A stretch of 64,000 nucleotides of DNA. Source: a virus (Duplodnaviria > Heunggongvirae > Uroviricota > Caudoviricetes). Every line of letters starts with the position of its first letter. Position 1 is the first letter of the stretch. The stretch spans positions 58,449-122,448 of the IMG/VR virus record IMGVR_UViG_3300037454_000478; one strand, given 5' to 3'. This document shows positions 1 to 35,936 of the stretch, piece by piece. The translations under genes were made by a program, and so were the position numbers. The notes under the pieces are model-generated. The model saw nothing but the letters and a program-made list of their open reading frames with translations, ran no database searches and was not told where the DNA came from.

Positions 1-12
1 ACGCGTGCTCTT

Positions 13-642
13 ATGGAGTATATAACCGAACACCCTGAATATGATGTGATAATCAATACAAATGCATGTACCGTTGTTAATTTGGAATTTATCAATAAAT
101 TCGTAAATGATGACAATGTGTATGAAATGGCCAAAAACCATTTTATTGGACATGTTATGGTTGTATTGCCCGGACAGGAATGGCCTATGCTTACCGGTAC
201 ATTTATGATGTTTGACCGGAAATTATACATGGATCATCTTTCGGATATTAGTAGATATGATGAATACAACGAGTATATAAGACGCACCTCATATCATCCA
301 GCCGATACGTATAATGATAAAGGGGATACTCAATGGGAAGGAGCGAGCAACGATGCTATTTGGGCTAAAATGATGGTTGATGATTGTGTTGATTTTTTAA
401 TACTACCATCAATATCCACCAGGAGTAAAGATTATATTTGGGCCACCCTTGGTGATGATGTATTCAAATTAAATATATCACCGATATATGATCAACACTT
501 CGAAATACCGTACGATGAAAGGCGAATAGTTGAACCAATAGCAATGAAGCTTGCTTTTATGGGGATGATGAATCACCATATAACCACTGATGAATATGCC
601 ACTATATTATCAAAAATATTGTATAGCTATAATAGGAAATAA
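13..642 (+). CDS. hypothetical protein (209 aa). The start may lie upstream of the window edge.
   Basis: Long ORF on the dominant + strand with no antisense competitor. No recognisable motif. Confidence 0.55.
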   Translation: MEYITEHPEYDVIINTNACTVVNLEFINKFVNDDNVYEMAKNHFIGHVMVVLPGQEWPMLTGTFMMFDRKLYMDHLSDISRYDEYNEYIRRTSYHPADTYNDKGDTQWEGASNDAIWAKMMVDDCVDFLILPSISTRSKDYIWATLGDDVFKLNISPIYDQHFEIPYDERRIVEPIAMKLAFMGMMNHHITTDEYATILSKILYSYNRK

Positions 643-653
643 ACATAAGGAAT

Positions 654-1406
654 ATGCCAAGAAAGGGAAAACCAGGGAAAAAACAAGACGGATTTGATGC
701 CGTGGATGATGTGCAGCAATATCTCTTTGGGGAAGCTGCAGAAAAACTCGGCATACCGGACGGTATTGGTGTTGATGATTTGGAGGATATGTATGAAATC
801 GATACGGAAAATATCGGTGGAGAAGCAAATACCTTGGCCGCATCCAATATACAAAACCTTTTACGTCTATATAACAACAAGGAATTTACGGATGAACACC
901 CGGATTTCAAGCGCCGTATTGATACGGAAATTGAATCTCTCCGGATGCTCTATAAGATGAAGAAGATCAATGAGATAGTCCATGATCATCTCGTTGGTTC
1001 CATCGCAAAACACCCCGGAAATGCCAGTTTATACAAGGCACTTAACGATATGCAGGGAAGGATGCTTTCCGTGGATAAGCAAATCCGTGAGCAGATAGCC
1101 GGATTCAACAAGATTATCACCGGATATCAAATGGAACTCAACTTTGCACAGGATAATGATCTTGGTGGGGATTCCGGCGGTACCGCCAGCCTCGATGACG
1201 GAAGCGTCATGTCTCGCGGCAATAAGGCATTCATCGAGGAAATGAAAAATCGTAAAAAAGAAGCCAACCAACCCACCGGCGATATCAACAACATAGATCC
1301 CGATAATTTACCTACAGGATGGAAGATTGATGAAGAAACCGGGGAGATTTATGATGATGATACCGGCGAGGTCATGGGCAAAATTAACGATATCAAAAAA
1401 CCATAA
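654..1406 (+). CDS. hypothetical protein (250 aa)
   Basis: ORF placed tightly 12 nt after the previous stop; acidic C-terminus. Confidence 0.65.
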   Translation: MPRKGKPGKKQDGFDAVDDVQQYLFGEAAEKLGIPDGIGVDDLEDMYEIDTENIGGEANTLAASNIQNLLRLYNNKEFTDEHPDFKRRIDTEIESLRMLYKMKKINEIVHDHLVGSIAKHPGNASLYKALNDMQGRMLSVDKQIREQIAGFNKIITGYQMELNFAQDNDLGGDSGGTASLDDGSVMSRGNKAFIEEMKNRKKEANQPTGDINNIDPDNLPTGWKIDEETGEIYDDDTGEVMGKINDIKKP

Positions 1407-1463
1407 AGTAACTGAAAACAAATCAAGGTATAATTATTAAGGTAGAAAAATATTATCAAAGCC

Positions 1464-1769
1464 ATGAAATCACTCACTGAATCTGTACAAACAGCCCTTA
1501 ACGAAAGTCTTGAAGGCATGCTTCAATCCCGCGCGGAGATCATTTCGAAAAACAAGAAGGGCGAGGACGAATACGGTATGATTAGACTTGACCATCCGGT
1601 CGATATTGGTGAAAATTCCGCATGTATTGATGCCATTAATGCAACCGGAAACATCGTTCGATTTGATATCGATGGCTCATCCGATGCCGTTGAGATTAAA
1701 TTCTTCTCCGATACAGTCCTCAAGGAGATCGTCAAGGAACTCGATGCAATGGTTAAAAAAATCAAATAA
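1464..1769 (+). CDS. hypothetical protein (101 aa)
   Basis: ORF followed directly by a hairpin terminator. Confidence 0.55.
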   Translation: MKSLTESVQTALNESLEGMLQSRAEIISKNKKGEDEYGMIRLDHPVDIGENSACIDAINATGNIVRFDIDGSSDAVEIKFFSDTVLKEIVKELDAMVKKIK

Positions 1770-1802
1770 CCAACATGGGAACTGATTGAACGTTCGAATA
1801 AA

Positions 1803-1831
1803 GGCTCCATCCCCGGATGAGCCTTTTTTTA
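1803..1831 (+). terminator. rho-independent terminator
   Basis: GGCTCCATCC-cc-GGATGAGCC stem followed by a T7 run. Confidence 0.7.
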
Positions 1832-1928
1832 TGCACATAATGATGGAGGTTGGACATAATGGTATTCAACCATAATTGTGTTAAAAATCATATACATATT
1901 CCTATATTACTACAATGAATTAAACGTA

Positions 1929-2216
1929 ATGATAAGGTTAACCATATATCACAGATTTAATGAATACACATTTGAAGGTGAAGGTAAACTTACCCGTATT
2001 GGGGAAGTTGAGAAATCCAATACGGCCCATGTGAAGGTTGATTTCGACAAATCCTATGAGCAGGCCGTACGTGATTTCCTGTATGATGTATCTTGTGGTG
2101 ATAAATGCAAGGTTTGCGATAATGAAAACCGGTATTTTAACGGGGAATATGTGACCAAATCCCGCATTGATGGTAACCCTATTTTAGAATTGTCAAAGAT
2201 ATCACAATACATTTAA
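1929..2216 (+). CDS. hypothetical Cys-containing protein. The ATG at 1929 is preferred over the GTG at 1878.
   Basis: ORF with a CGDKCKVC motif. Start choice is uncertain. Confidence 0.45.
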   Translation: MIRLTIYHRFNEYTFEGEGKLTRIGEVEKSNTAHVKVDFDKSYEQAVRDFLYDVSCGDKCKVCDNENRYFNGEYVTKSRIDGNPILELSKISQYI

Positions 2217-2233
2217 AAAAACACGCTATACAT

Positions 2234-2812
2234 ATGCAAATAGTACTTGTTGGTGCCCAAAGCACAGGCAAAACCAGCGTAATGAACGCATTACCAAATG
2301 AACTCAAAAAATATGGTATCCGGGAGGTCATACGTAATATGACCGCACAGGATCCGACCGTCCATATCAACCAAAATGGCGATGACTGGTCTCAAAATAG
2401 GTTCTTTTTTGAATACCTTTATCTTTTCGCCAAGTACCCCAAGTATATCTCCGACCGCGGATTATTGGATGTATGTGCATACACCCTTTGGCTTGTCCGT
2501 ACCGGAAAAGTATCACAGGAAACCTACGAGAAACAAATGTATGTTCTTCAGGATTGGATGAAAACCCATCCGGATGTCGTACATATTTATTTCCCCGCAT
2601 CCTATTTTGGTGTCGTTGATGATGGTTACCGGGATGCGAACGAAATGAACCGTCAGGAGGTCGACCAATGCGTCCGCGAGGTCATTGGTGATCTGATTGC
2701 ACGAAAATTATGGAAAGGGTACACAATTAGCGATAGTTCCATCACAGATCGAGTGAAGGAACTCAATGACATTATCAAAACATGTTTCCCCGGTGAAGAA
2801 ATAAAAATGTAA
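2234..2812 (+). CDS. P-loop NTPase, (d)NMP or nucleoside kinase-like
   Basis: Walker A motif VLVGAQSTGKTS. A downstream SDRG..DVCAY segment resembles the DR(Y) / ERS-type motif of dNMP and dN kinases. Confidence 0.6.
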   Translation: MQIVLVGAQSTGKTSVMNALPNELKKYGIREVIRNMTAQDPTVHINQNGDDWSQNRFFFEYLYLFAKYPKYISDRGLLDVCAYTLWLVRTGKVSQETYEKQMYVLQDWMKTHPDVVHIYFPASYFGVVDDGYRDANEMNRQEVDQCVREVIGDLIARKLWKGYTISDSSITDRVKELNDIIKTCFPGEEIKM

Positions 2813-2818
2813 CATATT

Positions 2819-3745
2819 ATGTTTGAAAAAGTTAACCCAAGTCATCCGGATAAAATCGCCGATCGTATAGCCGGTGCTCTTGTCGATAAGGCATATACCA
2901 TCGAGGATAATCCTAAAATTGCTATCGAGGTTCTTATCGGTCATGGGGTTTGTTTGATCCTCATTGAATCAAATATCTCATACAGGAGCCTTGATGAATA
3001 CGTAACGGAAACCGGCGAATACATCCGTGGTGGATTTGTCCGTGATACCGTATATCGAATCATCGGAACCGATGATATTGATTTGAAGACCATTTGTGTT
3101 CCGCAAGACGGATATCTCGCGGAAAACCAAGTCAACGACCTTCATTGTGGTGATAACGGCATTTTCCGTGGCGTTAAAAATACCCCGGAACAAAACGAGC
3201 TTACAAGGATCGCCGGATTCCTGTATGAAGACTGCCCATATGACGGAAAGTATCTCATTGATAATTACGCAGATAAACTTATTATCTGTCAAAGTCATGC
3301 AACCAACGAGTGGGTGGAAAACGAACTGGAAAACCACAACGTCAGCTTTGGTAATTTGATTATCAATCCCCTTGGTGACTGGACTGGCGGGATTGACGTG
3401 GATTCCGGTGCAACGAACCGTAAACTCGGATCCGATATGGGGGATGGGGTTACCGGTGGCGGAATCCATGGTAAGGATCTTTCAAAGACCGATGTATCGG
3501 TAAACATATTTGCTTGGTTATTGGTCAATGACCCGGATTACGTCAATGCCCGTGGAACCTTCCCGGGAAAACACTATGGAGATAAATGTGAATTTGAATG
3601 TGCCATTGGTGATACCAATATTGGTGGCTATCCGTTTGATTTCATTGTTAGTGTTGCTCGCGACTACATTAATGATATAGGTGGATTCGAAAAACTCGCC
3701 GAGTGGGGACTCATAAGACCTGCCATGTCCGCGATGGAAATGTAG
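2819..3745 (+). CDS. metK: S-adenosylmethionine synthetase-like protein (truncated MetK family, 308 aa)
   Basis: By-eye match to E. coli MetK motifs. SHPDKIADRIAGALVDKA matches GHPDKIADQISDAVLDA. HCGDNGIFRG matches GAGDQGLMFG. INPLGDWTGG matches INPTGRFVIGG. GGGIHGKDLSKTDVS matches GGGAFSGKDPSKVDRS. CEFECAIG matches CEIQVSYAIG. Confidence 0.7.
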   Translation: MFEKVNPSHPDKIADRIAGALVDKAYTIEDNPKIAIEVLIGHGVCLILIESNISYRSLDEYVTETGEYIRGGFVRDTVYRIIGTDDIDLKTICVPQDGYLAENQVNDLHCGDNGIFRGVKNTPEQNELTRIAGFLYEDCPYDGKYLIDNYADKLIICQSHATNEWVENELENHNVSFGNLIINPLGDWTGGIDVDSGATNRKLGSDMGDGVTGGGIHGKDLSKTDVSVNIFAWLLVNDPDYVNARGTFPGKHYGDKCEFECAIGDTNIGGYPFDFIVSVARDYINDIGGFEKLAEWGLIRPAMSAMEM

Positions 3746-3797
3746 GTAACAGGTTTCTTGTTTGTCGATTATTTTATTCATAAAGAAACGTACAAAT

Positions 3798-4049
3798 ATG
3801 AAAGACCTTAAAGAACATATGCAATCGGAGCTCAATGAATCGACCAATAAAGGTACCGAAATTGCCAATTACGTCAAAGGTTGGTTGATGGAAGCCAGTG
3901 ATGAAAGATCCGCATGGGACGTCATTATGGGCATCGAAGCCGGTGTAAATATGGCAATCACTGAACGCAATGGCATCAAAACCGATAGTAAATACAAATT
4001 TGCCACATTGGTGATGGAAAAACTATCACGCGCCCTTGGTAATTTGTAA
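3798..4049 (+). CDS. hypothetical protein (83 aa from the ATG; a TTG start at 3762 is also possible)
   Basis: ORF followed by a terminator. Confidence 0.45.
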   Translation: MKDLKEHMQSELNESTNKGTEIANYVKGWLMEASDERSAWDVIMGIEAGVNMAITERNGIKTDSKYKFATLVMEKLSRALGNL

Positions 4050-4081
4050 TAATCCAGTACACAATATTACAAACAACAAAA

Positions 4082-4110
4082 GACCCGGTTAAAACGCCGG
4101 GTCTTTTGTT
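4082..4110 (+). terminator. rho-independent terminator, overlapping a promoter variant
   Basis: GACCCGG-ttaaaacg-CCGGGTC stem followed by TTTTGTTT. Confidence 0.7.
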
Positions 4111-4144
4111 TATATTCATTAAAGTAAACTTAAACATTATACAT

Positions 4145-5014
4145 ATGTCCGAAAAATTCAAAAATTTCACTCGTACTGAAAAGGAAAAATTTGCAGTTGT
4201 TTCGTATTCCGGTGGAATGGATAGCACATGCCTCCTTCTTTATCTCCTTTCCAAGGGGTATATGATCAAAGCTATCTCGTTCGATTACGGACAGAGTCAT
4301 TCGTTGGAATTGAAACGAGCCAAAAAGATTGTGAAATACCTACAAAACATGGGTATGGCAATCAATCATCAAATCATCAACCTACAGGATGCGTTTTCCG
4401 ACAGTCAGTCCTCATTGGTTCTTGGCGAACATGCCCCGGAGGGCCACTACGAAGACGAATCCATGAAGGCAACCGTGGTGGAAAACCGTAACGTCATCTT
4501 CTCCGCCATCACATTCGGTAAGGCATTGGGTTGGGCCAAGATGAATCTCAATAGTTACAAACGTAACCTCCCGGAAGATGAGGCCCGCAAGATTTCCAAA
4601 GTCGTTATCTCCCTTGGTGTCCATGCCGGCGACCACTCCATTTATCCGGACTGTACGGAAGAGTCTGTGGAGATGGCCAAAGAACTTTACCGCATTTCCA
4701 ACTGGGACTCCGATCTCGTGGAATACGATACTCCATTCGTTAATTTCTCAAAGGCCGAGGTGTTGAACGTTGGTATCTCGAGTGCCCTTGAAATTGGCAT
4801 GAGTCATCGTCAAATCACAATGATCTTCAAGAACACGGTTTCCTGCTACAACGCCAACGAAAAAGGTGTTTCCTGCGGTAAGTGTGGAACTTGCACTGAA
4901 CGTCTTGAGGCATTTTGGAATAACAACCTGAATGACCCGGCACCGTATGTCGATGCGAATATGGGTAAGAAACCAAAAAATTGGAATTACATTCCTGTGG
5001 AGGATCAAGGATGA
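4145..5014 (+). CDS. queC: 7-cyano-7-deazaguanine synthase QueC
   Basis: VVSYSGGMDSTCLL (PP-loop motif SGGxDS). FDYGQSH. NRNVIFSAIT. SIYPDC. C-terminal CYNANEKGVSCGKCGTCTERL Zn-Cys cluster, as in QueC. Confidence 0.8.
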   Translation: MSEKFKNFTRTEKEKFAVVSYSGGMDSTCLLLYLLSKGYMIKAISFDYGQSHSLELKRAKKIVKYLQNMGMAINHQIINLQDAFSDSQSSLVLGEHAPEGHYEDESMKATVVENRNVIFSAITFGKALGWAKMNLNSYKRNLPEDEARKISKVVISLGVHAGDHSIYPDCTEESVEMAKELYRISNWDSDLVEYDTPFVNFSKAEVLNVGISSALEIGMSHRQITMIFKNTVSCYNANEKGVSCGKCGTCTERLEAFWNNNLNDPAPYVDANMGKKPKNWNYIPVEDQG

Positions 5015-5137
5015 AACACTTTACATTTACGGACGAAATAATATTAACGAACTCCAATGGAGTTCTTATTTTTTATAAAACTAATGGATCCCCAATTGAA
5101 ATCAAATAGAAAAATATTAAAATAATCAATAAATGAT

Positions 5138-7633
5138 ATGGGAAATAGTGAACTTAAAACAACAATTGAAAAAACCATTAAACCAAATGGTAGAGGTGAG
5201 ATCACAGGAAGTAACCTACAATATGTTTTGAATGAAATGGTGGATGTATTGGGCGCCGGTTATATGTATCTTGGGGATGCTACTCCAATAACATCGCCGG
5301 GTACACCCGATAATAATGTTTGTTATTTAGCCATTGAAGAAGGTAGTTATACTTACTTTGATAATATTGTTGTATCTGAACCATCGATCCTTTACTTTGA
5401 TACACAATGGCATAGTAGAACTCTTAATGGTAATTTTTCAACCGTAATACGCGCGGCTGATATTATAAATAATCTAAATAGTTCTGCAACCGATAAGGTT
5501 TTAAGTGCTGCAATGGGTAAATCACTTGCAGATAGTATAAAAAACCTAATTGATGATTTAAAAAACGGCACCCTTATCCCAAAGAACTCCGAAAATATTG
5601 AATCTTGGGAAGGCAACAATCACCCCGTGGATAATGATTTTAACGATACAATACGTACAACTGCTGGCAACGATCCTATTGATACAGATGCCGGTGGTGT
5701 GCTTTTGGCCATTAAAGCATTAAGTGATTTCAAGTGTACTGGTTTATTGGCAACTGCAGAAAACCAATTACGTTTGAAAAGCGATGGTGGTGGAGCAGTT
5801 GCCGTGGGTACTGGCTGGTATTTTCCTGTGCCAAAATTGACATATGGTGCTTTTGGAACTGCCGATGAAAATAACGGATTAATTCTTGTCGCAAAAGATG
5901 GATCCAATATTCAGAATGCAACTGTTTATTTTAAAGCACTTGCTAATGGTGTACCTACTGGTGTTACTGATGGTGTTGTTGCTTCAAGTCAGAATGTAAC
6001 ATATAATGGTAATACTTATAAGGTCTATACAACAAACGGCCCTGGATATCTCATAGTAAGTGATGTCACGTATGCGGAGACATGCGCTCGTATTGCATGG
6101 GAAGATTGGTATGATAAATTTGTTGCCCCGGATGAACAAGATGATCTTGGTGGTAGTATCGATCTTGCAGCTTTATTTACAGCAGCTCCTAACGGAACAG
6201 GTAAATTTATCGTATGCGGTGGTTCGTCAACACATGCTGAACGCATCAGTGCAAGTCAATGGAGAATTACAGATCCTGTTGGAAGAATTTCTTCACCAGT
6301 ATGGACTGATACTCCGGATGAAGTAGAAGAAGGAGAAACACAAACATATACCCATACACTTAATATTGTTGGTATATCTAATAATGGTATAGCAATAATT
6401 GAAGGCAGCTCCCAATCGTTATCGATTAATGGTACTGTTGTGAGTTATACTGATACTAATGATACTGCTATCAGTGGTGCTGTTCGTTATGAGTTGGCTA
6501 CACCAGCTACTGCTACAGTAAATATCGCCAGTGAATATACACTTAATGATGTTGGTATAGAAATGAAGGAGGGTGCTGAAGGTGAAGCAATTTTTACATG
6601 TCAGTATTCCCAAAATATTGCAGATTCGTTGGCTCTTGGTGCTCCAAAACTTAATATTCTTCGTAGTAACGCAGCTGCAATTAGTCTTGGATATGGACTT
6701 TGTATAACAGGTACGTATGTAAAAGATAAGGTAGTAACTATTCCTGATTTTATGTTACTTCAAAATGGTACAATTAATGTACTTTTCACTACACCTATTA
6801 ATACTGAAAATTCAACACTTAATGTATCATTAACAGGAGCTAAACCATTACGTATTCTTGGACAAAATCTTCCGGCTGGTGTTGTTAAGGCACAATCATA
6901 CGTCACTCTTGCATATGATGGTGAAGCGTGGAATATTATTAATATATTCTGTCCGGATTCATCATTTGACCCTGCAAGCCTTGTCGTTGATATGGGATTA
7001 GCAAGTGGTACAAAATGGGCTGTTCGTGATATTGACCTTACTAAACCAGGAGGTTTCTGTGATACTCCGTTTGTATATGAGAAGACATTCTTTAGCTGGG
7101 GCAATATCGATGGATATAATCCAAAAAATAATTCGTTTGCCAACGTTCACAACTGGGGTTCTGTTAATGGATCTGAACCATGGTATGATGGTCAACCTTA
7201 TGGTAATACTAAAGGCAATACACTTACTGGTAATATTCCTGTAGGTGAGGAATTTGATGCTGCTCGTGCTAATCTTGGTGCTCCATGGAGAATGCCGACA
7301 AATACCGAGTTCGGAGAACTTTTTAACGGATGTATTTATATTGATGCCACAGGTACGGAGATTTCCGTAGGAACTACTGATAAGAGAGTTACTGTTAATG
7401 GTATTGTGGGATTATATCTCCAATCCAAAGCAAATGGTAATAGGTTGTTTTTCGCTTGCTCCGGTCGCGGCAATGGTACGTCTTGGAACGTCCGTGGTTC
7501 GTACGGTTTCTTCTGGTCTGCGTCATTCAACTCTGCCCGTTATGCAAGGGGCTTGTACTTCGACAGTGGAGGCGTTTCTCCGCAGTACTACTACAACCGG
7601 TACTACGGGTTCGCGTTGCGCCCGGTTCAGTAA
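5138..7633 (+). CDS. DGR target protein: receptor-binding / tail fibre-like protein with a C-terminal Fib_succ/C-type-lectin-like variable domain
   Basis: 831-aa ORF. The last ~61 codons (GRGNGTSWNVRGSYGFFWSASFNSARYARGLYFDSGGVSPQYYYNRYYGFALRPVQ) are the VR, matching a TR about 970 bp downstream. Confidence 0.85.
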   Translation: MGNSELKTTIEKTIKPNGRGEITGSNLQYVLNEMVDVLGAGYMYLGDATPITSPGTPDNNVCYLAIEEGSYTYFDNIVVSEPSILYFDTQWHSRTLNGNFSTVIRAADIINNLNSSATDKVLSAAMGKSLADSIKNLIDDLKNGTLIPKNSENIESWEGNNHPVDNDFNDTIRTTAGNDPIDTDAGGVLLAIKALSDFKCTGLLATAENQLRLKSDGGGAVAVGTGWYFPVPKLTYGAFGTADENNGLILVAKDGSNIQNATVYFKALANGVPTGVTDGVVASSQNVTYNGNTYKVYTTNGPGYLIVSDVTYAETCARIAWEDWYDKFVAPDEQDDLGGSIDLAALFTAAPNGTGKFIVCGGSSTHAERISASQWRITDPVGRISSPVWTDTPDEVEEGETQTYTHTLNIVGISNNGIAIIEGSSQSLSINGTVVSYTDTNDTAISGAVRYELATPATATVNIASEYTLNDVGIEMKEGAEGEAIFTCQYSQNIADSLALGAPKLNILRSNAAAISLGYGLCITGTYVKDKVVTIPDFMLLQNGTINVLFTTPINTENSTLNVSLTGAKPLRILGQNLPAGVVKAQSYVTLAYDGEAWNIINIFCPDSSFDPASLVVDMGLASGTKWAVRDIDLTKPGGFCDTPFVYEKTFFSWGNIDGYNPKNNSFANVHNWGSVNGSEPWYDGQPYGNTKGNTLTGNIPVGEEFDAARANLGAPWRMPTNTEFGELFNGCIYIDATGTEISVGTTDKRVTVNGIVGLYLQSKANGNRLFFACSGRGNGTSWNVRGSYGFFWSASFNSARYARGLYFDSGGVSPQYYYNRYYGFALRPVQ
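7447..7630 (+). repeat. DGR variable repeat (VR)
   Basis: 184-nt near-identity with 8419-8602. 21 of 22 mismatches fall where the TR has A, mostly TAC/TTC here against AAC in the TR. Confidence 0.9.
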
Positions 7634-7673
7634 TATCGTTTTACCAACGGATAAAATAAAAGGAGTGTACCAC

Positions 7674-7691
7674 AGATGCGCCCCAGCGCAT
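7674..7691 (+). other. GC-rich hairpin downstream of the VR (candidate DGR homing-enhancer stem-loop)
   Basis: GATGCGC-ccca-GCGCATC, a 7-bp stem with a 4-nt loop, 44 nt after the VR end. Confidence 0.5.
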
Positions 7692-7735
7692 CCCATGGTG
7701 CACCCCTTAATAAATTTCAACACAGGTATTAACAT

Positions 7736-8284
7736 ATGACAATAACGGAAATAAGAAAAATAGAAGAAGACCGTAAAGATACGCTTGATGTGGTACATCT
7801 TATTAAAGAAGGTAGTTTCTATCACGCTAACGATTGGAGTGCTTGGTTAATGTCGACATACCCTATAGGGGAGGCAGTTCACAAACCCATGGTTGTTACA
7901 GTAAAAAAGTTAAAGGATGATTATCTTCATGCTTTTGTTGGTTTCCCCACAACATCATTAGCTAAATATGTACCTAATGATGGTAGTGTTGAATTTCGCC
8001 CTATCAGCGATAATCAAATAGATGTTGTTCTTAATATAGATTTTGATCAATTAACTACGGATCAAATAAGACATATGGTGGATGAATGGAAAGAAAACTT
8101 ACCAATACGTGAAAATAAGAAGCAACATCGTGAAGATAAGGATATCATTAATGAAGCAACGCGCATTACCCGTATTAGCGATGTGGTTGTTAAAATCATC
8201 TCATTACCCATGGAGGATATATCACCTAAACAAGCGTATGATATTTTAAGGGACTTACGTAAACAAATTTCCGCTTTATTTTAA
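7736..8284 (+). CDS. putative DGR accessory protein (Avd-like by position only)
   Basis: The only ORF between the VR and the TR, which is the canonical avd position. At 182 aa it is longer than typical Avd, and I saw no motif. Confidence 0.4.
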   Translation: MTITEIRKIEEDRKDTLDVVHLIKEGSFYHANDWSAWLMSTYPIGEAVHKPMVVTVKKLKDDYLHAFVGFPTTSLAKYVPNDGSVEFRPISDNQIDVVLNIDFDQLTTDQIRHMVDEWKENLPIRENKKQHREDKDIINEATRITRISDVVVKIISLPMEDISPKQAYDILRDLRKQISALF

Positions 8285-8418
8285 TAAAATAGGATGACGG
8301 TTCAGAACGATATTCATAGGTCATGCGTCTTATCTTTTTAAAAGATGGGAAAAAGTAAAGACACCACTTGGCTTCCACATGGATTCTTTGAGGCGTTCGT
8401 AAAAGGATATGACCGATA

Positions 8419-8602
8419 GTTTTTCGCTTGCTCCGGTAACGGCAATGGAACGTCTTGGAACAACCGTGGTTCGAACGGTAACTACTGGTCTGCGACATTC
8501 AACTCTGCCCGTAATGCAAGGAACTTGAACTTCAACAGTGGAGGCGTTAATCCGCAGAACAACAACAACCGGTACAACGGGTTCGCGGTGCGCCCGGTTC
8601 AG
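8419..8602 (+). repeat. DGR template repeat (TR)
   Basis: Adenine-rich copy of the VR (AAC codons where the VR has TAC, TTC, GGC or CGC). Intergenic, immediately upstream of the reverse transcriptase. Confidence 0.9.
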
Positions 8603-8638
8603 CATACACTTCTAACAGTCATCCTTTTTTCTTTATAA

Positions 8639-9826
8639 ATGGTTTTAACACGGCAGCAATTACTTCTTGATCTTTATCAAGCATATTATGATGCAAAAAA
8701 ACATAAATCCAAACGTTCATATGTAAGGAAATGGGAATCCAACCTAAAACAGAACATGGATGATTTATGTGATGATCTTTATACACGTTGTTATAAACCA
8801 TTACCATCAAAATGTTTTATTGTAGATTATCCAAAGAAAAGGGAAATATTTGCTGCTGCATTTAGAGATAGAATTGTACATCATCTTTACTATAACTATA
8901 CTAACAAGTTATATCAGCACACGTTCATCCAAGACTCGTATTCCTGTATCAAAGGGCGTGGTACACATTATGGCATAAATCGTATTAATACATTTTGCCG
9001 TAAAGAAAGTCTTAACTGGCAACGGCCATGTTATGCTATGCATCTTGATATTAGAGGATATTTTATGCATATTGTCCGTAAAAGACTTCTTGAAATATCC
9101 ATCAATTCATTACATAAGATGGCAACCCATCGCATCAATAATCATTCCTCAAAAACCTGGAGTGATATTCTTGATATGGATTTCATTGAATGGTTAACTG
9201 AATTGATCATAATGATAGATCCAAAAGAAAATTGCATTATTTGTGGAGAACTTGAGGATTGGGATGATTTGGATCCGGCTAAATCATTATTATGGCTTGA
9301 AGATGGTCTTGGGTTACCGATTGGTAATCTTACTTCACAACTATTTTCCAATATTTATCTTAATATACTCGATCAATTTATGAAACGAGTATTAAAGTGT
9401 CATTATTATGGTCGTTATGTTGATGATGCTATAGTGGTAAGTTGTGATAAGGAATGGTTATTATCATTAGTGCCAAAGATAAAAAAGTTCCTTTGGGATG
9501 AGCTTCAACTCGAATTGCATCTTGGTAAACTTGAAATATCGGAAGTACATAAAGGTGTTGAAATACTTGGTGTGTATATAAAACCTTATCGTATATATGT
9601 TTCAAATCATTCGTTAAGAAAAATGGAAAAGAAAATATCCGAATTTGATTATTCAGATTATTCATCAGTATTAAGAAGTGTTAATAGTTATCTTGGAATA
9701 CTCCAGCATGTATCTTCATATAATTTACGCCGTAAACTATTTATGATTCAACCAATAATGAAAATATGTAATTTTAATACGGATATAACAAAAGCGATTG
9801 ATATAAGAAAATCATTGCGGTTTTAA
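8639..9826 (+). CDS. DGR-type reverse transcriptase
   Basis: FRDRIVHH, SYSCIKGRGTH, LPIGNLTSQLFSNIYLN (DGR-specific motif) and YGRYVDDAIVV (YxDD). Confidence 0.85.
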   Translation: MVLTRQQLLLDLYQAYYDAKKHKSKRSYVRKWESNLKQNMDDLCDDLYTRCYKPLPSKCFIVDYPKKREIFAAAFRDRIVHHLYYNYTNKLYQHTFIQDSYSCIKGRGTHYGINRINTFCRKESLNWQRPCYAMHLDIRGYFMHIVRKRLLEISINSLHKMATHRINNHSSKTWSDILDMDFIEWLTELIIMIDPKENCIICGELEDWDDLDPAKSLLWLEDGLGLPIGNLTSQLFSNIYLNILDQFMKRVLKCHYYGRYVDDAIVVSCDKEWLLSLVPKIKKFLWDELQLELHLGKLEISEVHKGVEILGVYIKPYRIYVSNHSLRKMEKKISEFDYSDYSSVLRSVNSYLGILQHVSSYNLRRKLFMIQPIMKICNFNTDITKAIDIRKSLRF

Positions 9827-9835
9827 ATCCCGTTT

Positions 9836-9862
9836 AAAGGCTCCCCCGTGGAGCTTTTATTA
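9836..9862 (+). terminator. rho-independent terminator
   Basis: AAAGGCTCC-cccgt-GGAGCTTTT stem followed by a T-rich run. Confidence 0.6.
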
Positions 9863-9887
9863 TTTATATACATGAAATAAATTCACA

Positions 9888-10379
9888 ATGTCCATGAAAC
9901 CATTAACTGATTATATCACAGAAGCAATGGCTCCTCAAACCGGTATTGGTGCATTTGATTGGCAAATTGGGGGTAATCACGTGATTATCAACAATATCAC
10001 ACAACAACTAAAAGCCCATGGATTTACACCAACAACCGGCAATAATCGCGTAAAATATAAGGAGTACAAGGTTACACATAATGGCTCCTGCCTTACAATC
10101 GGGCTCAAAGGTATACGTAAAGGAGATTCCAAGGAACACACCCATAAGGTATTCATTCGTCAGGATAGCGATGGTATGATTGATATCATTACCAAGCATT
10201 ATGACCCGGATGGCTCCGGTACATGGTTTACCGGTTGGTTAATCAAACACGGGGATATTGAAATTGGATACTATAAGTCCAACGATCTCCCAAGAAAAGG
10301 AACGATTGAGGATACCGCGGAAAATTCCGTTATGATTTTGAATAAAATCCTTACAAGAAGCAAACGTTTCGGAAAATAA
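9888..10379 (+). CDS. hypothetical protein (163 aa)
   Basis: ORF on the + strand. Confidence 0.6.
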   Translation: MSMKPLTDYITEAMAPQTGIGAFDWQIGGNHVIINNITQQLKAHGFTPTTGNNRVKYKEYKVTHNGSCLTIGLKGIRKGDSKEHTHKVFIRQDSDGMIDIITKHYDPDGSGTWFTGWLIKHGDIEIGYYKSNDLPRKGTIEDTAENSVMILNKILTRSKRFGK

Positions 10380-10390
10380 TTTATCACAAT

Positions 10391-11086
10391 ATGGAACAAG
10401 TGAAAGAGATACGTTATTACCTTGCAAATAAGAAGTCATGGAGTGATGTGACAATCGCTGTTACTTATAAAGGGCTCCCAAAAGAAGGTCAAGTCATCAA
10501 TGTAGGTAAAATCAAGATGAATGTGAAATCAATTGCTGATGGTACTTCAAATGGCCGTTCAGTTATAAAAGTATTTCTTGAAAACGAAAATGACCGTACG
10601 CCATTGGACGAGGCCATTGAAATGCTCGATAATCCCACATTCATCACAATTGATGAGGATGTCAACGAGGCAAAAGGTAAAGCAGCCGTTAAAGTCGGTG
10701 GTAGCATGGATAACCGTACATATACATCCGTAAGACCATTTAGTGATACTGCAGATGCCATCCGTGCATTTGGCCCCGGTTCATTTGGCACCCTTGGTGG
10801 ATATGTTAGATCCGCACTTTCCGGTCTTGGTGTTGGTTACGGAGTACAGGTAACTGATTTCGGAGAGGCTGTCACGGTTACCATCACATATTCGAACTCG
10901 CGTACCGGGCGTATTTCCGGCCAAAGCTTTGTAATCGTGATGCACCATGGTAATAGTCACAAATACCTATATACGGTATACGCACATTCCGCCCGCTGGC
11001 GTGACTGTGATGATTACAACCAAGCCATTGGTTTTATTCGCTCCAAGGCATCCGCACTTGCCGGTCAAACAAGTGGTGGAGTTTAA
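10391..11086 (+). CDS. hypothetical protein (231 aa)
   Basis: ORF; the antisense ORF is shorter. Confidence 0.6.
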   Translation: MEQVKEIRYYLANKKSWSDVTIAVTYKGLPKEGQVINVGKIKMNVKSIADGTSNGRSVIKVFLENENDRTPLDEAIEMLDNPTFITIDEDVNEAKGKAAVKVGGSMDNRTYTSVRPFSDTADAIRAFGPGSFGTLGGYVRSALSGLGVGYGVQVTDFGEAVTVTITYSNSRTGRISGQSFVIVMHHGNSHKYLYTVYAHSARWRDCDDYNQAIGFIRSKASALAGQTSGGV

Positions 11087-11103
11087 AAAAACATAGATAT
11101 ACT

Positions 11104-12813
11104 GTGTCCTGCCCTATAAAAAGACTTATAACGATCACAGTCCCTGTGAAGTATCAACCTGTCAATATATTTGACGAAAACGGGATTGATGTCACGGCAT
11201 CGTGCCAATTTTCTTGGTCATCCGATTCCGTATGTTGGACCAATTTTGTATCATATGAGCAGTACACACGGATGGCTTCCAATATCGAAACCGATTATTT
11301 TCTCCGTATATTGATTACCACCGGTTTCTCAAAACTTGCATTGGATAATACGATAGTGGATTGCTATACGATATGCTTGTACAATGAGAACCCGTACCTC
11401 ATGGATCTTTGCGTAAATCAAACAGTTGACTTTTACGCCAACCTTGATTGTGCGCTTCAAATGTATCAGCAGATGTCGGATCTGATTTGTTGTACCATCG
11501 GTATCCCATGTTATTACTTCCGCGTTATGCCGGATCAAAGTACAGCGGATTATACATTTAAGGAGTATCTGCTTCATAACGTGGTGGATATGAAACATCT
11601 TAAACTCGTATGTCAGGATGGATCAATGCCATCATCAAAACCTCAAATGACCGAGTTTGATTTTGATTGGGAAACCGATTGGGAGGTTGAGATGTCCAAA
11701 TCAGCATTTGCAAAGGCATTTGGTGACACTGCCTTTCCAAAACAGCGCGATCTTATATGGATTCCACTGATGGGACGTATGTGGGAGGTCAATTCCGCAT
11801 ATGATGAGAAGAACGAGGCATTTATGTGGCGTCCGGTAACATGGAAGCTCGGATTGGTCAAGTGGAACGATAAAACCAACGTAAACCAAGGGGATTTCGC
11901 AGACATTATTGATTCTTGGGCGATCAATCGGATGGAGAATTTTATGGATCGTGAACGTGAGGAACAAGAACACCAATCCGGAGTCAATCAAATTGATGCA
12001 CCATTATTCAGTGGTGATAATTTGTATATGACGTTTTTGGAGGATGCAATTAGAACCGGCGTTACTGTTTCCGAGAAAAATAACGTATCCAAGACCCAAC
12101 TCAATCATAATGCGGTGATCGTCACCCGGAACATGTACCGTTTTGCAAACGGTGATTCCATCGTGAAATATAACAAGACCACATGTGGTGATCATGGCAC
12201 TCTTATGTTCCTCATAGATACCTCAAACAACCAATATATCAATAATTGTTTTGAAAACGATGCGATGGTTGAATACAAAAAGGTTCTTTTCAAGGCCGGC
12301 CACATTGAGGTACTATTAAGAATAACAAGGACTTACGATAGGAGATTTGGATGGTCATATAAATACTACGTTTCATTTAATGGTATGGAATGCGAATTAC
12401 ATGACCCCAATAATCCTCCGGGAGTATCCGTATATACTGGTATTTATGAAGTTCAATGCCGCTGGAATAGAAGTAATTTCACCACGGAGATGAATGTCAT
12501 ACCTTATATCCAAACCATACCGGCCGGCACGCCTCCGTATTCAGTCCGCCCGGAAATGCATATTTTGGACTTTACCAATCCGGTATGTACAATGACCTCA
12601 AATTATAACAATGATTTCATTCAGGAACAACCGGTAAGCATCATTCTATCTCCAGCTCCGGTCGGTATCTCCAACGTCAAGCTATTTGATGCGGCACTTT
12701 CCGATAATGAAATGGCAAAGGAATCCATCAAATACACCACAACAGATCCAAGGTGTGTTATAAATGATGTAGCCCGTCCGCTTGTCGAAGATACCGGTTA
12801 TAATGTTAGATAA
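11104..12813 (+). CDS. hypothetical protein (569 aa; GTG start, an ATG alternative exists at 11272)
   Basis: Long ORF; Cys-rich N-terminal half. Confidence 0.6.
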   Translation: MSCPIKRLITITVPVKYQPVNIFDENGIDVTASCQFSWSSDSVCWTNFVSYEQYTRMASNIETDYFLRILITTGFSKLALDNTIVDCYTICLYNENPYLMDLCVNQTVDFYANLDCALQMYQQMSDLICCTIGIPCYYFRVMPDQSTADYTFKEYLLHNVVDMKHLKLVCQDGSMPSSKPQMTEFDFDWETDWEVEMSKSAFAKAFGDTAFPKQRDLIWIPLMGRMWEVNSAYDEKNEAFMWRPVTWKLGLVKWNDKTNVNQGDFADIIDSWAINRMENFMDREREEQEHQSGVNQIDAPLFSGDNLYMTFLEDAIRTGVTVSEKNNVSKTQLNHNAVIVTRNMYRFANGDSIVKYNKTTCGDHGTLMFLIDTSNNQYINNCFENDAMVEYKKVLFKAGHIEVLLRITRTYDRRFGWSYKYYVSFNGMECELHDPNNPPGVSVYTGIYEVQCRWNRSNFTTEMNVIPYIQTIPAGTPPYSVRPEMHILDFTNPVCTMTSNYNNDFIQEQPVSIILSPAPVGISNVKLFDAALSDNEMAKESIKYTTTDPRCVINDVARPLVEDTGYNVR

Positions 12814-14339: not shown

Positions 14340-15200
14340 ATGAATGATCAATTACATATAGTTGCATTAAGTGATACCCATGGTAGGCTAAAGACCACAT
14401 ACATCCCCAAATGCGATGTTGTCACGATATCCGGCGACTTTTCTGCTTTAAGGAATGATCGTCAGGTGGCGTATAATGGACCATTATGCAACTGGATTGT
14501 CAACAAATTTATCCCATGGCTTGTGAGTTTGCCTTGTGAAAGGGTCATATTTATCCCGGGGAACCATGATTTTATCACGGAGCAAGGATGGTTTGAACAA
14601 TGGTTCAATGAGAAACTCAAGGCCTTGGATGAATACTACCTTGGCGCCGGTGAAGACAATAAGCCATCCAAAAAGATTGTGTATTTGTGTTACAATACCT
14701 ATGAATATAAAGGTTACACATTTTACGGATGCCCGGCGACAGATATGATGAGGTGGGCATGGCCTTCCAACAACGACTATACCAAATACAAAGCACCTTC
14801 GGGTACAGACATTATGTTAGTCCATCAGGCGCCGGATTGGATGGAATTAGGTACATCCCATTTCAATGACGGATATGCGGAGAATTTTGGCAGCAATTTA
14901 CTCCTCAATGCATTGGCTGATAACCCAAAGGATCTTCCAAAGTTGCTTCTTTGTGGTCACATTCATTCCGGCAACCACCTACCTATCATATACGATTTGA
15001 TGGATGAGGATGGGAAGAAGCACTCCTGCATGATGGCCAACGTATCGACCAAAAACGAAAGTTATGCGGAGTATTTCCATTGTAGAAATTTTGTATTGAT
15101 ACCGGTCGATGATCAAACCTATATTGAAACTTGGGTATCCCCAAGGGAAGGCCCGAGCGAAATTGAGGAATATAATCGCCGAGAACGTTTCATCCTCTAA
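14340..15200 (+). CDS. calcineurin-like metallophosphoesterase
   Basis: ALSDTHG, ISGD, IPGNHD and GHIH motifs. Confidence 0.7.
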   Translation: MNDQLHIVALSDTHGRLKTTYIPKCDVVTISGDFSALRNDRQVAYNGPLCNWIVNKFIPWLVSLPCERVIFIPGNHDFITEQGWFEQWFNEKLKALDEYYLGAGEDNKPSKKIVYLCYNTYEYKGYTFYGCPATDMMRWAWPSNNDYTKYKAPSGTDIMLVHQAPDWMELGTSHFNDGYAENFGSNLLLNALADNPKDLPKLLLCGHIHSGNHLPIIYDLMDEDGKKHSCMMANVSTKNESYAEYFHCRNFVLIPVDDQTYIETWVSPREGPSEIEEYNRRERFIL

Positions 15201-15250: not shown

Positions 15251-15946
15251 ATGAATAGGACAATTGAAAACATTCAAAAGAACATGAAAACCGTTTTTGA
15301 AGGCTACGTTAATGGCCAAAAATTCACGAACCGTGAGTTAATGAACGCATATATCGGTAAGTGCATTTCCGAGGGTTTGCCTATCACCGATCTTTCGTAC
15401 TCAACAACCACCCAGTACAAGGAACCTGCCCCTGAAAACCGTCAATTCGACAACCGTCCCGGCCGTGACGCCATCCGTCAAGCCCAAAAGGAAATCAGTT
15501 GGGTCACCTACACCAACAACCTCAACCAGCGCGTTCCAAAACCATACGACAACGTCATTGGTTACGTGGTACCTTTCGTCCGTGAGGAAATCACCATCAA
15601 CGAGTCAAACGCCGAGTTTATCATCAACGACTTCAGGGCCCGCCTTAACGACCGCTTGGCATTCCTTGAGAATTATGTGTTCTCACAGATCCGTACATGG
15701 AAGTATGATGAGAATCAGGTCAACCAGTGGCTCGATCTCCTCACCAGTTCATTCCAACACAAGCTTGAGTGGGCCAACAACCGCGTCACCCTTATCGAGA
15801 ATTTCTTGAATGATGGTGATCCGTTCATCACTTCACATATCGATCAAACGGCACTTCGTGGTTTCCATGAGATCTACGCCGAAACCGCCGGATTCTGCAG
15901 TGCAGTCATTGACATCATTGCAGAACTCAAGTGCGACCTGCAGTAA
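15251..15946 (+). CDS. hypothetical protein (231 aa)
   Basis: ORF followed by a terminator. Confidence 0.6.
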   Translation: MNRTIENIQKNMKTVFEGYVNGQKFTNRELMNAYIGKCISEGLPITDLSYSTTTQYKEPAPENRQFDNRPGRDAIRQAQKEISWVTYTNNLNQRVPKPYDNVIGYVVPFVREEITINESNAEFIINDFRARLNDRLAFLENYVFSQIRTWKYDENQVNQWLDLLTSSFQHKLEWANNRVTLIENFLNDGDPFITSHIDQTALRGFHEIYAETAGFCSAVIDIIAELKCDLQ

Positions 15947-15965
15947 TCTCCGGGATATACGATCC

Positions 15966-15993
15966 GATACAAAACCCGCCGCGGCGGGTTTTT
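15966..15993 (+). terminator. rho-independent terminator
   Basis: AAACCCGCCG-CGGCGGGTTT stem followed by a T7 run. Confidence 0.75.
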
Positions 15994-16076
15994 TTATGCC
16001 TTTATGGTCTCAAAAATTACGACTACCAAGGAAAAAAACGTACAAAAAACCATATATTTATAAAAGTATTAAATGT

Positions 16077-17108
16077 ATGAAGCACGATAAGCAATGGAAT
16101 CCATCGGAGCATCATAACAAAGGATACGCTCCATATCAAAGGCATAAACTTAAAGCATCAAATTGGGTAACCCCGGAAGAAGCCGCAATGATTAGCAAAC
16201 GCTGCAATAAATGGCGTCATAATGGTATTTGGGGACGCGAGCCGGATTGGAATCTTGAAAGGAAACTCATAAATAAGTATGTTGATAAACCATACGATGT
16301 GTTTATCAAAGCATGGCATGAGAGAACCAAACAACTTCGCAAACAAGGTGTACTTTTGGAATTAAGATGTATCAAGCCAACATTGACGGATAGCCCCTCC
16401 ACTTGGGATGAATTTTATGTGGATACGGAAGGCATTATCCGTAAAAACGATAATTATAGATGGAGGTTCAATAGAAACAAAAAACCCATTAAAGTAGTAG
16501 AAAAAGAAGTGGTCAAATATCATCTTGACGATAAGATTTATAGTAAGAATTGGTGTACGCCAACGCCATTTCATATGATTCTTTCCATTTTGAGCCATTA
16601 TCTTTCCGTAACGGATTATAACGACATTCTTGATGGTGGTATCTCCAAGGAGAAATTCGACCGACTTGTTCAAAGTTCAATGCACAGCGGAATTAACTAT
16701 GCAATTGATAAGTTTGCCCGTAATCACAACAAGGAGTTAGGTAAAAACAACCCACGGTTTTACATGGGATCACCGGGATACTGTAGATACGATTGTTTTA
16801 ATGACTTATTTGTTGCGGATTATAGTGAATCCGTATATAGATACATATATCCGGGAACGCCGGAATATTCACAAATCGTTGCCGAGAGGAATGATGCTTC
16901 CAATAAAGCCCGCCGTGAATACAAAAAGCAAATGGATGATTACCGGGCTGGTCTTTTGCATAATATCGAGGCAAACCGTAAGGCCAAGGAGGATGAGATA
17001 AACCGCCAAAAAATCATCAAGCACGGCTTTGACGAAAACGAATCTTTCCGCGGGGAGGAATATCATGGCAAAAAACATAAAAGACGCAAGATGGCCATCG
17101 ATGCCTGA
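16077..17108 (+). CDS. hypothetical basic protein (343 aa)
   Basis: The ORF 15810.. is trimmed to the first ATG after the terminator. Confidence 0.55.
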   Translation: MKHDKQWNPSEHHNKGYAPYQRHKLKASNWVTPEEAAMISKRCNKWRHNGIWGREPDWNLERKLINKYVDKPYDVFIKAWHERTKQLRKQGVLLELRCIKPTLTDSPSTWDEFYVDTEGIIRKNDNYRWRFNRNKKPIKVVEKEVVKYHLDDKIYSKNWCTPTPFHMILSILSHYLSVTDYNDILDGGISKEKFDRLVQSSMHSGINYAIDKFARNHNKELGKNNPRFYMGSPGYCRYDCFNDLFVADYSESVYRYIYPGTPEYSQIVAERNDASNKARREYKKQMDDYRAGLLHNIEANRKAKEDEINRQKIIKHGFDENESFRGEEYHGKKHKRRKMAIDA

Positions 17109-28249: not shown

Positions 28250-28290
28250 CCTTTTTATTTCGTAAATCCTTTCCTTTTTGAAGCCCATTT

Positions 28291-28322
28291 GTTAAGTTAC
28301 AGATGGGTTTCTTTATATATAA
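28291..28322 (+). promoter_or_regulatory. conserved phage promoter
   Basis: gttaag at 28291-96 and tttatatata at 28313-22; ATG at 28340. Confidence 0.6.
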
Positions 28323-28339
28323 CCATAAAATTTATACAT

Positions 28340-33540: not shown

Positions 33541-34218
33541 TTGAATATGAACGATACAAGTAAACTTTCGGCAAAACTTCAAATCCTTGATACAGAATTT
33601 CAAAAACGGGATTCATCGTATTGCACCAACCTCACAACATTGATTGATAGAGGGTGCTCCATCACGGACAATTCCAACCTCCTCGATTGCATTATCACCC
33701 GCAAGGATAAGAACGGTGATATGAAGCATATACCTGCCCATTTTGTGGCAAAACGTATGGTTAGGGACTTCAATCCCGGGTACAAAACCGTTTTGGTGAC
33801 CGCAAAGTTTTTGGACGATATGTTCAAATTCTATATGGAGCATTTTTGCAAATCCACACTTGACCTGTCAAAGAACGAAACCATGTATTTTGTTATGATG
33901 TATGGCGACAGGTTCTTCATGTTTAACATCGGGGATATGATATTCCGCCATGGTATGAATGCCGAACAAGGACGCCGTAAATACATAAAGACCATCAAGG
34001 TCAAAAATCCGGCAACCGGTGGTTGGGATAAGGAAAATCTCTACAATATACCCATCAATTGGGCGGAAGAGTATATGTATGTCGGAACATCAAAGGATGA
34101 CCGCGAAACGATCTACGACAAATGCAAAAAAATCACAAGTGATGCCATAACGGATTCCATCCTTGGCTCACAGGTTATCACGAAGGTCTCCCAACCCGAT
34201 ATATCTCCGTTTATTTGA
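33541..34218 (+). CDS. hypothetical protein (225 aa)
   Basis: ORF. Confidence 0.55.
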   Translation: MNMNDTSKLSAKLQILDTEFQKRDSSYCTNLTTLIDRGCSITDNSNLLDCIITRKDKNGDMKHIPAHFVAKRMVRDFNPGYKTVLVTAKFLDDMFKFYMEHFCKSTLDLSKNETMYFVMMYGDRFFMFNIGDMIFRHGMNAEQGRRKYIKTIKVKNPATGGWDKENLYNIPINWAEEYMYVGTSKDDRETIYDKCKKITSDAITDSILGSQVITKVSQPDISPFI

Positions 34219-34219
34219 T

Positions 34220-34300
34220 GGTTTATTTGCGCTATAATCGCATTTCTCAATTACCCAATATAGTTATGAGGGGGAAACATAAAAACGCGTTAAATCAAAG
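34220..34300. repeat. structured intergenic element, copy D (degenerate)
   Basis: TTTATTTGCGCTATAATCGCA...CCCAATATAGTTATGAGGGGG...AAAAACGCGTTAAATC. Confidence 0.45.
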
Positions 34301-34312
34301 TTATTTGCTGTT

Positions 34313-34788: not shown

Positions 34789-34804
34789 CCATTATTATTT
34801 AATC

Positions 34805-35449: not shown

Positions 35450-35483
35450 ATCCGAATGCATAAAAATTGCACGGATTTATGCG

Positions 35484-35513: not shown

Positions 35514-35516
35514 TTC

Positions 35517-35907: not shown

Positions 35908-35936
35908 TATATTATCCCATAATCAAACGAATAGTT

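Follow-up and report, generated by a model that had tools for sequence, protein, structure and literature searches.

Viral homologs of metK, the gene for the S-adenosylmethionine (SAM) synthetase MetK (methionine adenosyltransferase [MAT]), are a published, abundant kind of auxiliary gene (bioRxiv 10.1101/2021.01.05.425418), and a SAM synthetase is encoded in 58.9% of Ca. Heliusvirales genomes (PMC11283538). In phage phi1207.3, orf29 has been proposed to supply the methyl donor for the product of a neighboring DNA methylase gene (PMC4260502). Among the phages with deazaguanine in their DNA, DpdA is a signature of modification; DpdA3 has been assigned to the phages CP220 and immuto, whose guanine is fully replaced (dADG in CP220 and fdPreQ1 in immuto), and the SAM-dependent DpdM is known from others (Cui et al. 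2023, PMC10516641). Here, we analyze a locus in which a compact metK-like gene lies between a gene for a P-loop kinase and queC, which encodes 7-cyano-7-deazaguanine synthase. The locus occupies positions 2234 to 5014 of a 64,000-nucleotide (nt) stretch of the IMG/VR virus record IMGVR_UViG_3300037454_000478, and we refer to this whole stretch as the window.

A first-pass annotation, made from the letters alone, had recognized this gene trio, and an open reading frame (ORF) scan confirmed it, with frames at 2234-2812, 2819-3745, and 4106-5014 all present on the plus strand. With moderate confidence, we favor an account in which a compact, active MetK makes SAM during infection and its gene has been inserted into a DpdA3-type kinase/QueC neighborhood. 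Both systems are of known kinds, and the lineage that carries them is novel: the source appears to be a large T4-like, lytic-type phage of a new rumen or gut lineage. A megablast search of window positions 1-12000 against the INPHARED phages returned zero matches.

The metK-like product retains the MetK fold and motifs

The product of the metK-like gene has a single Pfam match, to S-AdoMet_synt_N (E value of 8.8e-9), and matches PHROG 1569 at 7e-52, a family that the PHROGs database labels "unknown function." In a sequence search of the PDB, it aligned with MetK chains at the HPDK region and at the GGG..GKD region. An AlphaFold model built from an alignment of 61 sequences reached a predicted local distance difference test score (pLDDT) of 88.2 and a predicted template modeling (TM) score of 0.89, and the top 50 Foldseek matches of this model in the PDB were all MAT/MetK structures (best E value of 5e-17, probability of 1.00, query TM scores of 0.58 to 0.67). 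A fold search of BFVD with the same model gave zero significant matches.

We next assessed conservation in the alignment of 61 homologs. Invariant columns comprise H9, D11, K12, E37, E50, Q96, D112, D142-G-K144, and W188, followed by D195, R201, K202, GGG213-215, K219, D220, K223, and D225. The Escherichia coli MetK equivalents are H14, D16, K17, E42, E55, Q98, D118, and D163/K165 in the N-terminal and central parts and F230 (Trp here, W188), D238, R244, K245, K265, K269, and D271 in the remainder. The E. coli reference sequence used for this numbering carries the expected residue at 16 of 16 literature positions; K144 was equated with K165 from the order of motifs and secondary-structure elements rather than from a confident alignment of the residues.

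The individual motifs are kept as well. The N-terminal HPDK motif reads S-H9-P-D11-K12 (61 of 61 sequences; HMMER-aligned to MetK), and the GDxG and DxK motifs read C-G-D112-N-G and D142-G-K144, both invariant. The triphosphate loop is GGGIHGKD rather than GGGAFSGKD, one residue shorter, and is likewise invariant in the family. All eight substrate-binding motifs that served as evidence of function in a survey of viral auxiliary metabolic genes (bioRxiv 10.1101/2021.01.05.425418) are present. The His, Asp, and Lys set of MetK is thus retained, the profile and structure searches made no assignment to a non-MetK family, and the earlier view of the gene as a MetK-superfamily member with hallmark motifs holds.

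The first-pass annotation had placed the apparent deletions in the central domain. Alignment with E. coli MetK using MAFFT revealed a wider distribution of losses: the N terminus is shorter by about 6 amino acids (aa), roughly 10 aa are missing around E. coli residues 79-88, loops of the central domain are trimmed, and the C-terminal end has lost some 30 to 60 aa. Compared with bacterial MetK (E. coli 1FUG/7LL3; Ureaplasma MAT 6RK5), the window protein has the fold (Foldseek E value of about 1e-16) and the catalytic and substrate-binding residues in common at only about 20% identity, but it is 308 aa long against about 384 aa (and about 260 aa in its own family), has trimmed central loops and no C-terminal tail, and carries an altered gating loop, the sequence of which is replaced by the family-specific VPQDxxLAxNQ. 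Relative to the 260-aa family norm, the window lineage has two insertions, at about residues 55-70 and 238-255.

Because the binding and catalytic motifs and the fold are kept, the protein is most likely a catalytically competent SAM synthetase, predicted to convert ATP and methionine to SAM. The question of catalysis, left open earlier, is much narrowed by the invariance of all E. coli-equivalent catalytic residues. We consider it very improbable that the protein is something else, such as an adenosyltransferase that uses another acceptor, or a protein that binds SAM or the MetK of the host as a decoy or regulator. Its length (about 76 residues short of bacterial MetK), its VPQDxxLAxNQ loop, the change of F230 to Trp, and a model score far under the cutoff would all suit such a role. 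However, the residues that bind triphosphate, metal, and methionine are invariant in the 61 sequences, the model predicts a MAT fold at high confidence, and the family-wide close pairing with DNA methyltransferases, described below, fits SAM production.

The compact MetK family and the slot between kinase and QueC

The homolog search with the window MetK yielded at least 8,000 clusters at 90% identity; the best 120 homologs listed are 260 to 313 aa long, with a median of 264 aa. An exhaustive profile search that covered 1.84 billion 50%-identity representatives gave 290 matches to the family at an E value of ≤1e-30. Judged by these sequences, the compact MetK family is abundant and not very divergent. 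Short length is the family norm, and the window protein exceeds it by virtue of its two insertions. The earlier remark that a phage-encoded SAM synthetase is uncommon was therefore wrong, given this number of clusters, the frequency in Ca. Heliusvirales, and the published abundance of viral metK.

The family has a usual partner. In Enterococcus prophages, compact metK lies between the gene for the small terminase and a gene for a DNA methyltransferase with ParB_N and N6_N4 domains. A homolog of this ParB-methyltransferase occurs in 65 of 80 compact-metK loci from IMG/VR; of the 73 loci whose downstream side had room for it, 56 have it directly after metK, at a median gap of 6 nt. The window MetK shares 50 to 57% identity with compact MetK proteins from phages of Streptococcus, Enterococcus, Oscillospiraceae, and Gardnerella, and like phi1207.3 orf29 and the Ca. 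Heliusvirales proteins, it is phage-borne with retained motifs. Its setting is different: the compact MetK of temperate siphoviruses adjoins DNA methyltransferases near the terminase, whereas this one sits in a deazaguanine neighborhood of a T4-like phage. Searches of the window by tblastn with the ParB-methyltransferase and with a Streptomyces-phage methyltransferase gave zero matches.

The interval between the kinase and QueC genes varies among related contigs. In this phage, it holds metK and an 83-aa ORF (orf83); in one relative (L005), metK is accompanied by genes for 60-aa and 159-aa proteins, and in another (L008), by genes for a 48-aa protein and a GT2 glycosyltransferase. In a third relative (L095), the slot is empty, and the kinase gene (product 63% identical) directly abuts queC. 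MetK is 59 to 66% identical between relatives, and the kinase and QueC there are 79 to 87% identical. Neither the CP220 nor the immuto genome carries MetK, and the examined parts of L099, an uncultured immuto-like phage, lack it as well. On present comparisons, metK would be a lineage-specific insertion into a variable slot, made in one sublineage. It probably came from the pool of temperate Firmicutes phages, as the 50 to 57% identity suggests, landed in a permissive slot, and was kept. A terminator-like hairpin, detected by a consensus scan and by inspection of the sequence, separates orf83 from queC, and metK is probably transcribed with the kinase gene and separately from queC.

These comparisons bear on a suggestion in the first-pass annotation that the SAM synthetase might feed a DNA-modification pathway. 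Synteny gives no support to a specific functional tie of MetK to QueC, since the slot is variable and MetK is missing in L095. Under dedicated coupling, MetK would feed a SAM-dependent deazaguanine step (QueE or a DpdM-like methylation of preQ1), and kinase, MetK, and QueC would form one module. Such coupling would fit the order kinase-MetK-(variable)-QueC, which is kept in relatives whose MetK is only 59 to 66% identical; the lack, beside the window MetK, of the methyltransferase partner typical of its family; and the occurrence of SAM-dependent DpdM in other deazaguanine phages (PMC10516641). We nevertheless regard it as unlikely in view of the absences of MetK listed above and the terminator-like hairpin between MetK and QueC, and in about 80 kb (the window and about 14.3 kb upstream), we found no QueE, DpdM-like gene, or other methyltransferase. 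QueE, moreover, uses SAM catalytically, which also counts against dedicated coupling. Nothing specific speaks for a dedicated role of MetK in the deazaguanine pathway, to which we give a low probability; in the account that we favor, the SAM would go to general users.

QueC, its probable DpdA3 partner, and the P-loop kinase

The identification of QueC is clear, as had been proposed. The window protein matches Pfam QueC at 5e-43 (147 bits against a threshold of 22) and aligns over its full length with PDB 2pg3 and 3bl5, including SGGxDS (SGGMDS here) and the Cys cluster (C-x9-C-x2-C-x2-C, aligned to 2pg3); its TIGR00364 score, 138.4 bits, is just short of the cutoff of 150.3. Judged by sequence, its product could be either ADG or preQ0. 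We place the gene at 4145-5014 because the TTG at 4106 falls inside the hairpin and because the relatives, at 289 aa, start at the ATG equivalent to 4145. The nearest QueC of a cultured phage is that of immuto (36% identity), and the window protein is 59% identical to QueC of the complete cluster in L099. The immuto QueC (L009 11995-12876) is without the C-terminal cysteine cluster that the window and bacterial proteins keep. At 5049-5065, directly 3' of queC, there is another terminator-like hairpin, with a T-run, and queC may be a monocistronic unit between the two hairpins.

The first-pass annotation had recognized no pathway partner of QueC in the 64 kb, and our searches bear this out. No TGT/DpdA, FolE, QueD, or QueE was detected in the window by Pfam (ORFs of at least 120 aa) or by PHROGs (the 44 ORFs without a Pfam match, whose PHROGs matches were limited to baseplate proteins, a Lar-like protein, and two functionally unlabeled families). 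Searches by tblastn with QueD and QueE of immuto gave zero matches in the window, and of the L099 cluster proteins, only QueC and the kinase were matched there. A radical-SAM gene at 56235-57044 (269 aa) was considered as a QueE candidate and rejected; it has a CPNHCPDC motif and matches phrog_626 (NrdG), and a true QueE matches phrog_2076 at 5e-52. The gene is NrdG-like, in agreement with the earlier statement that NrdG is encoded.

A partner does, however, lie just outside the window. Contig L090 is 100% identical to window positions 1-11406 and reaches 8.8 kb further upstream; a second contig, L101 (7.8 kb, the sole JGI metagenome match), adds another 5.5 kb upstream, without Que genes. At window-relative positions -8342 to -7227, L090 (and also L101) carries a 371-aa DpdA3-like gene. 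Its product is 36% identical (1e-50) to gp206 of Flavobacterium phage immuto, annotated as "DNA guanine transglycosylase," and 33% identical (4.5e-37) to gp056 of Campylobacter phage CP220, and it keeps the ILDNS, PD, GVxQG, HHLLG, and SxDTSNP motifs; an IMG/VR scan with this protein gave zero matches. A dpdA-type partner is thus present in contigs identical to the window, 7.2 to 8.3 kb upstream of position 1, and the puzzle of an orphan queC is largely dissolved. Given a DpdA3 homolog in the same phage, QueC most likely belongs to a DpdA3-type 7-deazaguanine DNA-modification system, and the phage DNA would carry 7-deazaguanine.

With CP220 and immuto, this phage has in common a DpdA3 homolog (33 to 36% identity across almost the entire protein), QueC, and a homologous P-loop kinase that neighbors DpdA3 or Que genes. 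It differs in that the roughly 80 kb examined yielded no FolE, QueD, QueE, or QueF, that DpdA3, at 371 aa, is longer by about 100 residues, that the kinase occurs as two paralogs, and that a compact MetK lies between kinase and QueC. The Que genes of immuto are spread over about 18 kb, and the L099 cluster has the order kinase-acetyltransferase-QueC-QueD-QueE-FolE-QueF-DpdA3. In the MetK-less relative L095, a 307-aa radical-SAM-like protein (CNMQCPFC) is encoded at 15322-16245, 4 kb downstream of QueC; by eye only, it is not QueE-like, and tblastn found no homolog of it in the window.

The kinase product matches Pfam AAA_28 at 1.7e-10 and carries a Walker A motif (GAQSTGKTS) and invariant D74-R75 and R133. 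Foldseek searches with its AlphaFold2 model (pLDDT of 92) matched deoxyadenosine kinase (dAK) 2jat (1.8e-5), thymidylate kinases, Drosophila deoxynucleoside kinase (dNK), and the ribosylnicotinamide-kinase domain of NadR, at a probability of 1.00 and E values of 2e-5 to 1e-3. It shares the P-loop fold, an Arg-rich lid, and the D-R motif with Mycoplasma mycoides dAK (2JAT), Dm-dNK, human TMPK, and the NadR domain, but it is only 10 to 19% identical to them, and the PHROG name "thymidylate kinase" is an annotation label only. The fold matches uphold its initial description as resembling deoxynucleoside monophosphate or deoxynucleoside kinases.

In each of four distant phage lineages, a homolog of this kinase adjoins DpdA3 or Que genes. 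In CP220, gp057 is a kinase homolog (profile E value of 9e-22) immediately after DpdA3 within the tail-gene block, with DpdA3 preceded by gp055, an HD-domain and P-loop protein (L102, CP220 53542-56035). In immuto, gp203 (32% identity, 3.5e-16) lies between DpdN and QueF (L100, immuto 34089-37015), and in L099, a kinase homolog heads the Que-DpdA3 cluster (L099 7932-14571). In the present phage, a 242-aa AAA_28 kinase paralog overlaps the DpdA3 stop codon (L090; also L091, L094, and L101). The association has its limits. In Streptomyces phages, the kinase homologs neighbor a methyltransferase and terminase, and the 12.5-kb stretch viewed is free of Que genes; one 41%-identical homolog stands alone; and the more distant DpdA-like genes of Chryseobacterium phage MA9V-3 and Aeromonas phage Ahp1 lack a recognizable kinase neighbor. 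The P-loop protein next to the DpdA-like gene of Bacillus phage BSTP12 is only weakly related.

Further observations concern the upstream region. DpdA3, the kinase paralog, and then a 203-aa cytidylyltransferase-like gene span L090 469-3000 (window-relative -8342 to -5811). The paralog and the cytidylyltransferase-like gene were first read as a NadR-like NAD salvage pair; the PHROG matches, to cytidylyltransferase at 2.5e-14 versus NMNAT at 1e-3, speak rather for a generic cytidylyltransferase. Further upstream of DpdA3 lie a sigma-70-like gene and, both recognized by eye, a 106-aa GIY-YIG-like ORF and a 1,125-aa primase/helicase-like gene.

The kinase neighborhoods and the DpdA3 homolog also bear on whether QueC might instead serve queuosine in tRNA, as part of an RNA-repair or translation toolkit, with the kinase an ordinary, unrelated deoxynucleoside monophosphate kinase. 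RtcB, a CCA-adding/HD enzyme, and phosphoesterases are encoded nearby; FolE, QueD, QueE, and QueF were not seen; and the kinase homologs of Streptomyces phages in the 12.5-kb stretch noted above keep no Que company. We consider this improbable all the same, as the genome also encodes a DpdA3 homolog, whose gene abuts that of a kinase paralog, a tRNA scan found zero tRNA genes in the window, the kinase adjoins DpdA3 or Que genes in four distant lineages, and DpdA is taken as a signature of DNA modification (PMC10516641).

The recurrent DpdA3-kinase neighborhood suggests a step at the level of the nucleoside or nucleotide. One could go further and propose that the kinase is the missing step of a prereplicative, nucleoside-level route in DpdA3 phages, in which DpdA3 would exchange guanine on the free deoxynucleoside or nucleotide, the dNK-like kinase would rephosphorylate the product for the polymerase, and in this phage, MetK would add a SAM-dependent decoration. 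We hold this route to be distinctly unlikely, although if true, it would account for replacement being complete (100%) only with DpdA3. Cui et al. 2023 (PMC10516641) do not use the word "kinase" in their main text, and a literature search for a DpdA-associated kinase or a characterized compact phage MetK returned nothing specific.

Taken together, the account that we favor runs as follows. MetK would make SAM from ATP and methionine during infection, and the flanking kinase and QueC would belong to DpdA3-type 7-deazaguanine DNA modification, with the DpdA3 gene upstream of the window translationally abutted to the second kinase paralog. In one sublineage, the metK gene would have entered the variable slot that separates the kinase gene from queC, and its SAM would serve general users, such as the radical-SAM NrdG, QueE (if any), and methyltransferases, rather than a dedicated deazaguanine step.

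Several findings weigh against this account. The metK-like product scores 47.9 bits against the TIGR01034 metK model, for which the cutoff is 309.4, and the Pfam models of the central and C-terminal MetK domains are unmatched by it; with a score under the cutoff and only the N-terminal domain recognized, it is best treated as part of a divergent compact subfamily and not as an equivalog. Literature searches turned up no published assay of any member of the compact family. No methyltransferase was found in the 64-kb window by Pfam, PHROGs, or tblastn, so the usual consumer of the SAM is absent there. MetK is kept at the same spot in relatives whose copies are only 59% identical, and a real functional tie is compatible with that. 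The DpdA3 assignment itself is based on 33 to 36% identity to proteins that resisted functional testing in E. coli (PMC10516641). Finally, FolE, QueD, and QueE were not found in the roughly 80 kb covered, so that the source of the QueC substrate is not accounted for by the genes examined; related contigs are 180 to 235 kb long, among them ENA ERZ27291651 k119_475973 (179,853 bp; kinase 93% identical) and ERZ28653736 scaffold_118 (234,837 bp), and a further one, ERZ28612998 scaffold_123, measures 117,975 bp.

Locus map, other window features, and implications

The region consists of four closely spaced plus-strand genes, for the kinase, MetK, orf83, and QueC (Table 1). Pfam and PHROG searches with orf83 gave zero matches, and a longer, TTG-started version of this ORF (3762-4049) is not called in identical contigs.

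Table 1. Coordinates of the kinase-MetK-QueC locus in the window
Feature	Position	Strand	Details
P-loop kinase gene	2234-2812	+	192 aa; 7-nt gap before the MetK gene; AAA_28, PHROG 2107
Compact MetK/methionine adenosyltransferase homolog	2819-3745	+	308 aa; PHROG 1569
Small ORF (orf83)	3798-4049	+	83 aa; ATG 3798 from sequence; same call in identical contig L090
Terminator-like hairpin	4075-4110	+	15-bp stem, 7 G-C pairs, T-rich tail; consensus match only
QueC (7-cyano-7-deazaguanine synthase family)	4145-5014	+	289 aa; SGGMDS, C-x9-C-x2-C-x2-C

Elsewhere in the window, a diversity-generating retroelement occupies 5138-9826, with a variable repeat at 7447-7630, a template repeat at 8419-8602, and an RVT_1 reverse transcriptase gene just downstream at 8639-9826. 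The variable repeat is the 3' end of an 831-aa tail fiber gene and is 88% identical to the template repeat, with 21 of 22 differences at template adenines. An RNA-repair-like set comprises a metallophosphoesterase (14340-15200), an RtcB ligase (17360-18613; 3.9e-60), and a CCA-adding-like protein with PolyA_pol-head and HD domains (28289-29869). The window also encodes a 511-aa SPFH/Band 7 protein with a flotillin domain (31242-32777) and a 447-aa protein whose N-terminal part matches Tad3, an inhibitor of type I Thoeris (36302-37645; PF25185, 1.6e-16); a Tad6-like protein is encoded by the relative L108. A partial ThyX-like match at 40695-41432 covers the C-terminal 50 residues only. An 81-aa Cys-rich ORF lies at 57497-57742; a match to the Lar-like restriction-alleviation family (phrog_599, 5e-10) came from one ORF of the batch in which it was scanned, and its assignment to this ORF is a guess. 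A full UDP-glucose/GDP-mannose dehydrogenase is encoded at 42235-43746, next to a weak GH16 match at 41390-42238, and in L005 and L008, GT92 or GT2 glycosyltransferases lie beside the kinase-MetK-QueC region. The dehydrogenase, GH16, and glycosyltransferase genes hint at sugar-related chemistry, which might or might not target DNA.

These results serve mainly as a correction: among phages, the short MetK is the usual version of a widespread auxiliary gene, and the seemingly orphan QueC has a DpdA3 partner outside the window. The abundant family of about 260 aa, seemingly catalytically complete, could define a minimal SAM synthetase. A new large T4-like phage lineage of the rumen or gut probably carries DpdA3-type guanine replacement, and the presence of a dNK-like kinase beside DpdA3 and Que genes bears on how DpdA3 phages reach complete replacement of guanine.

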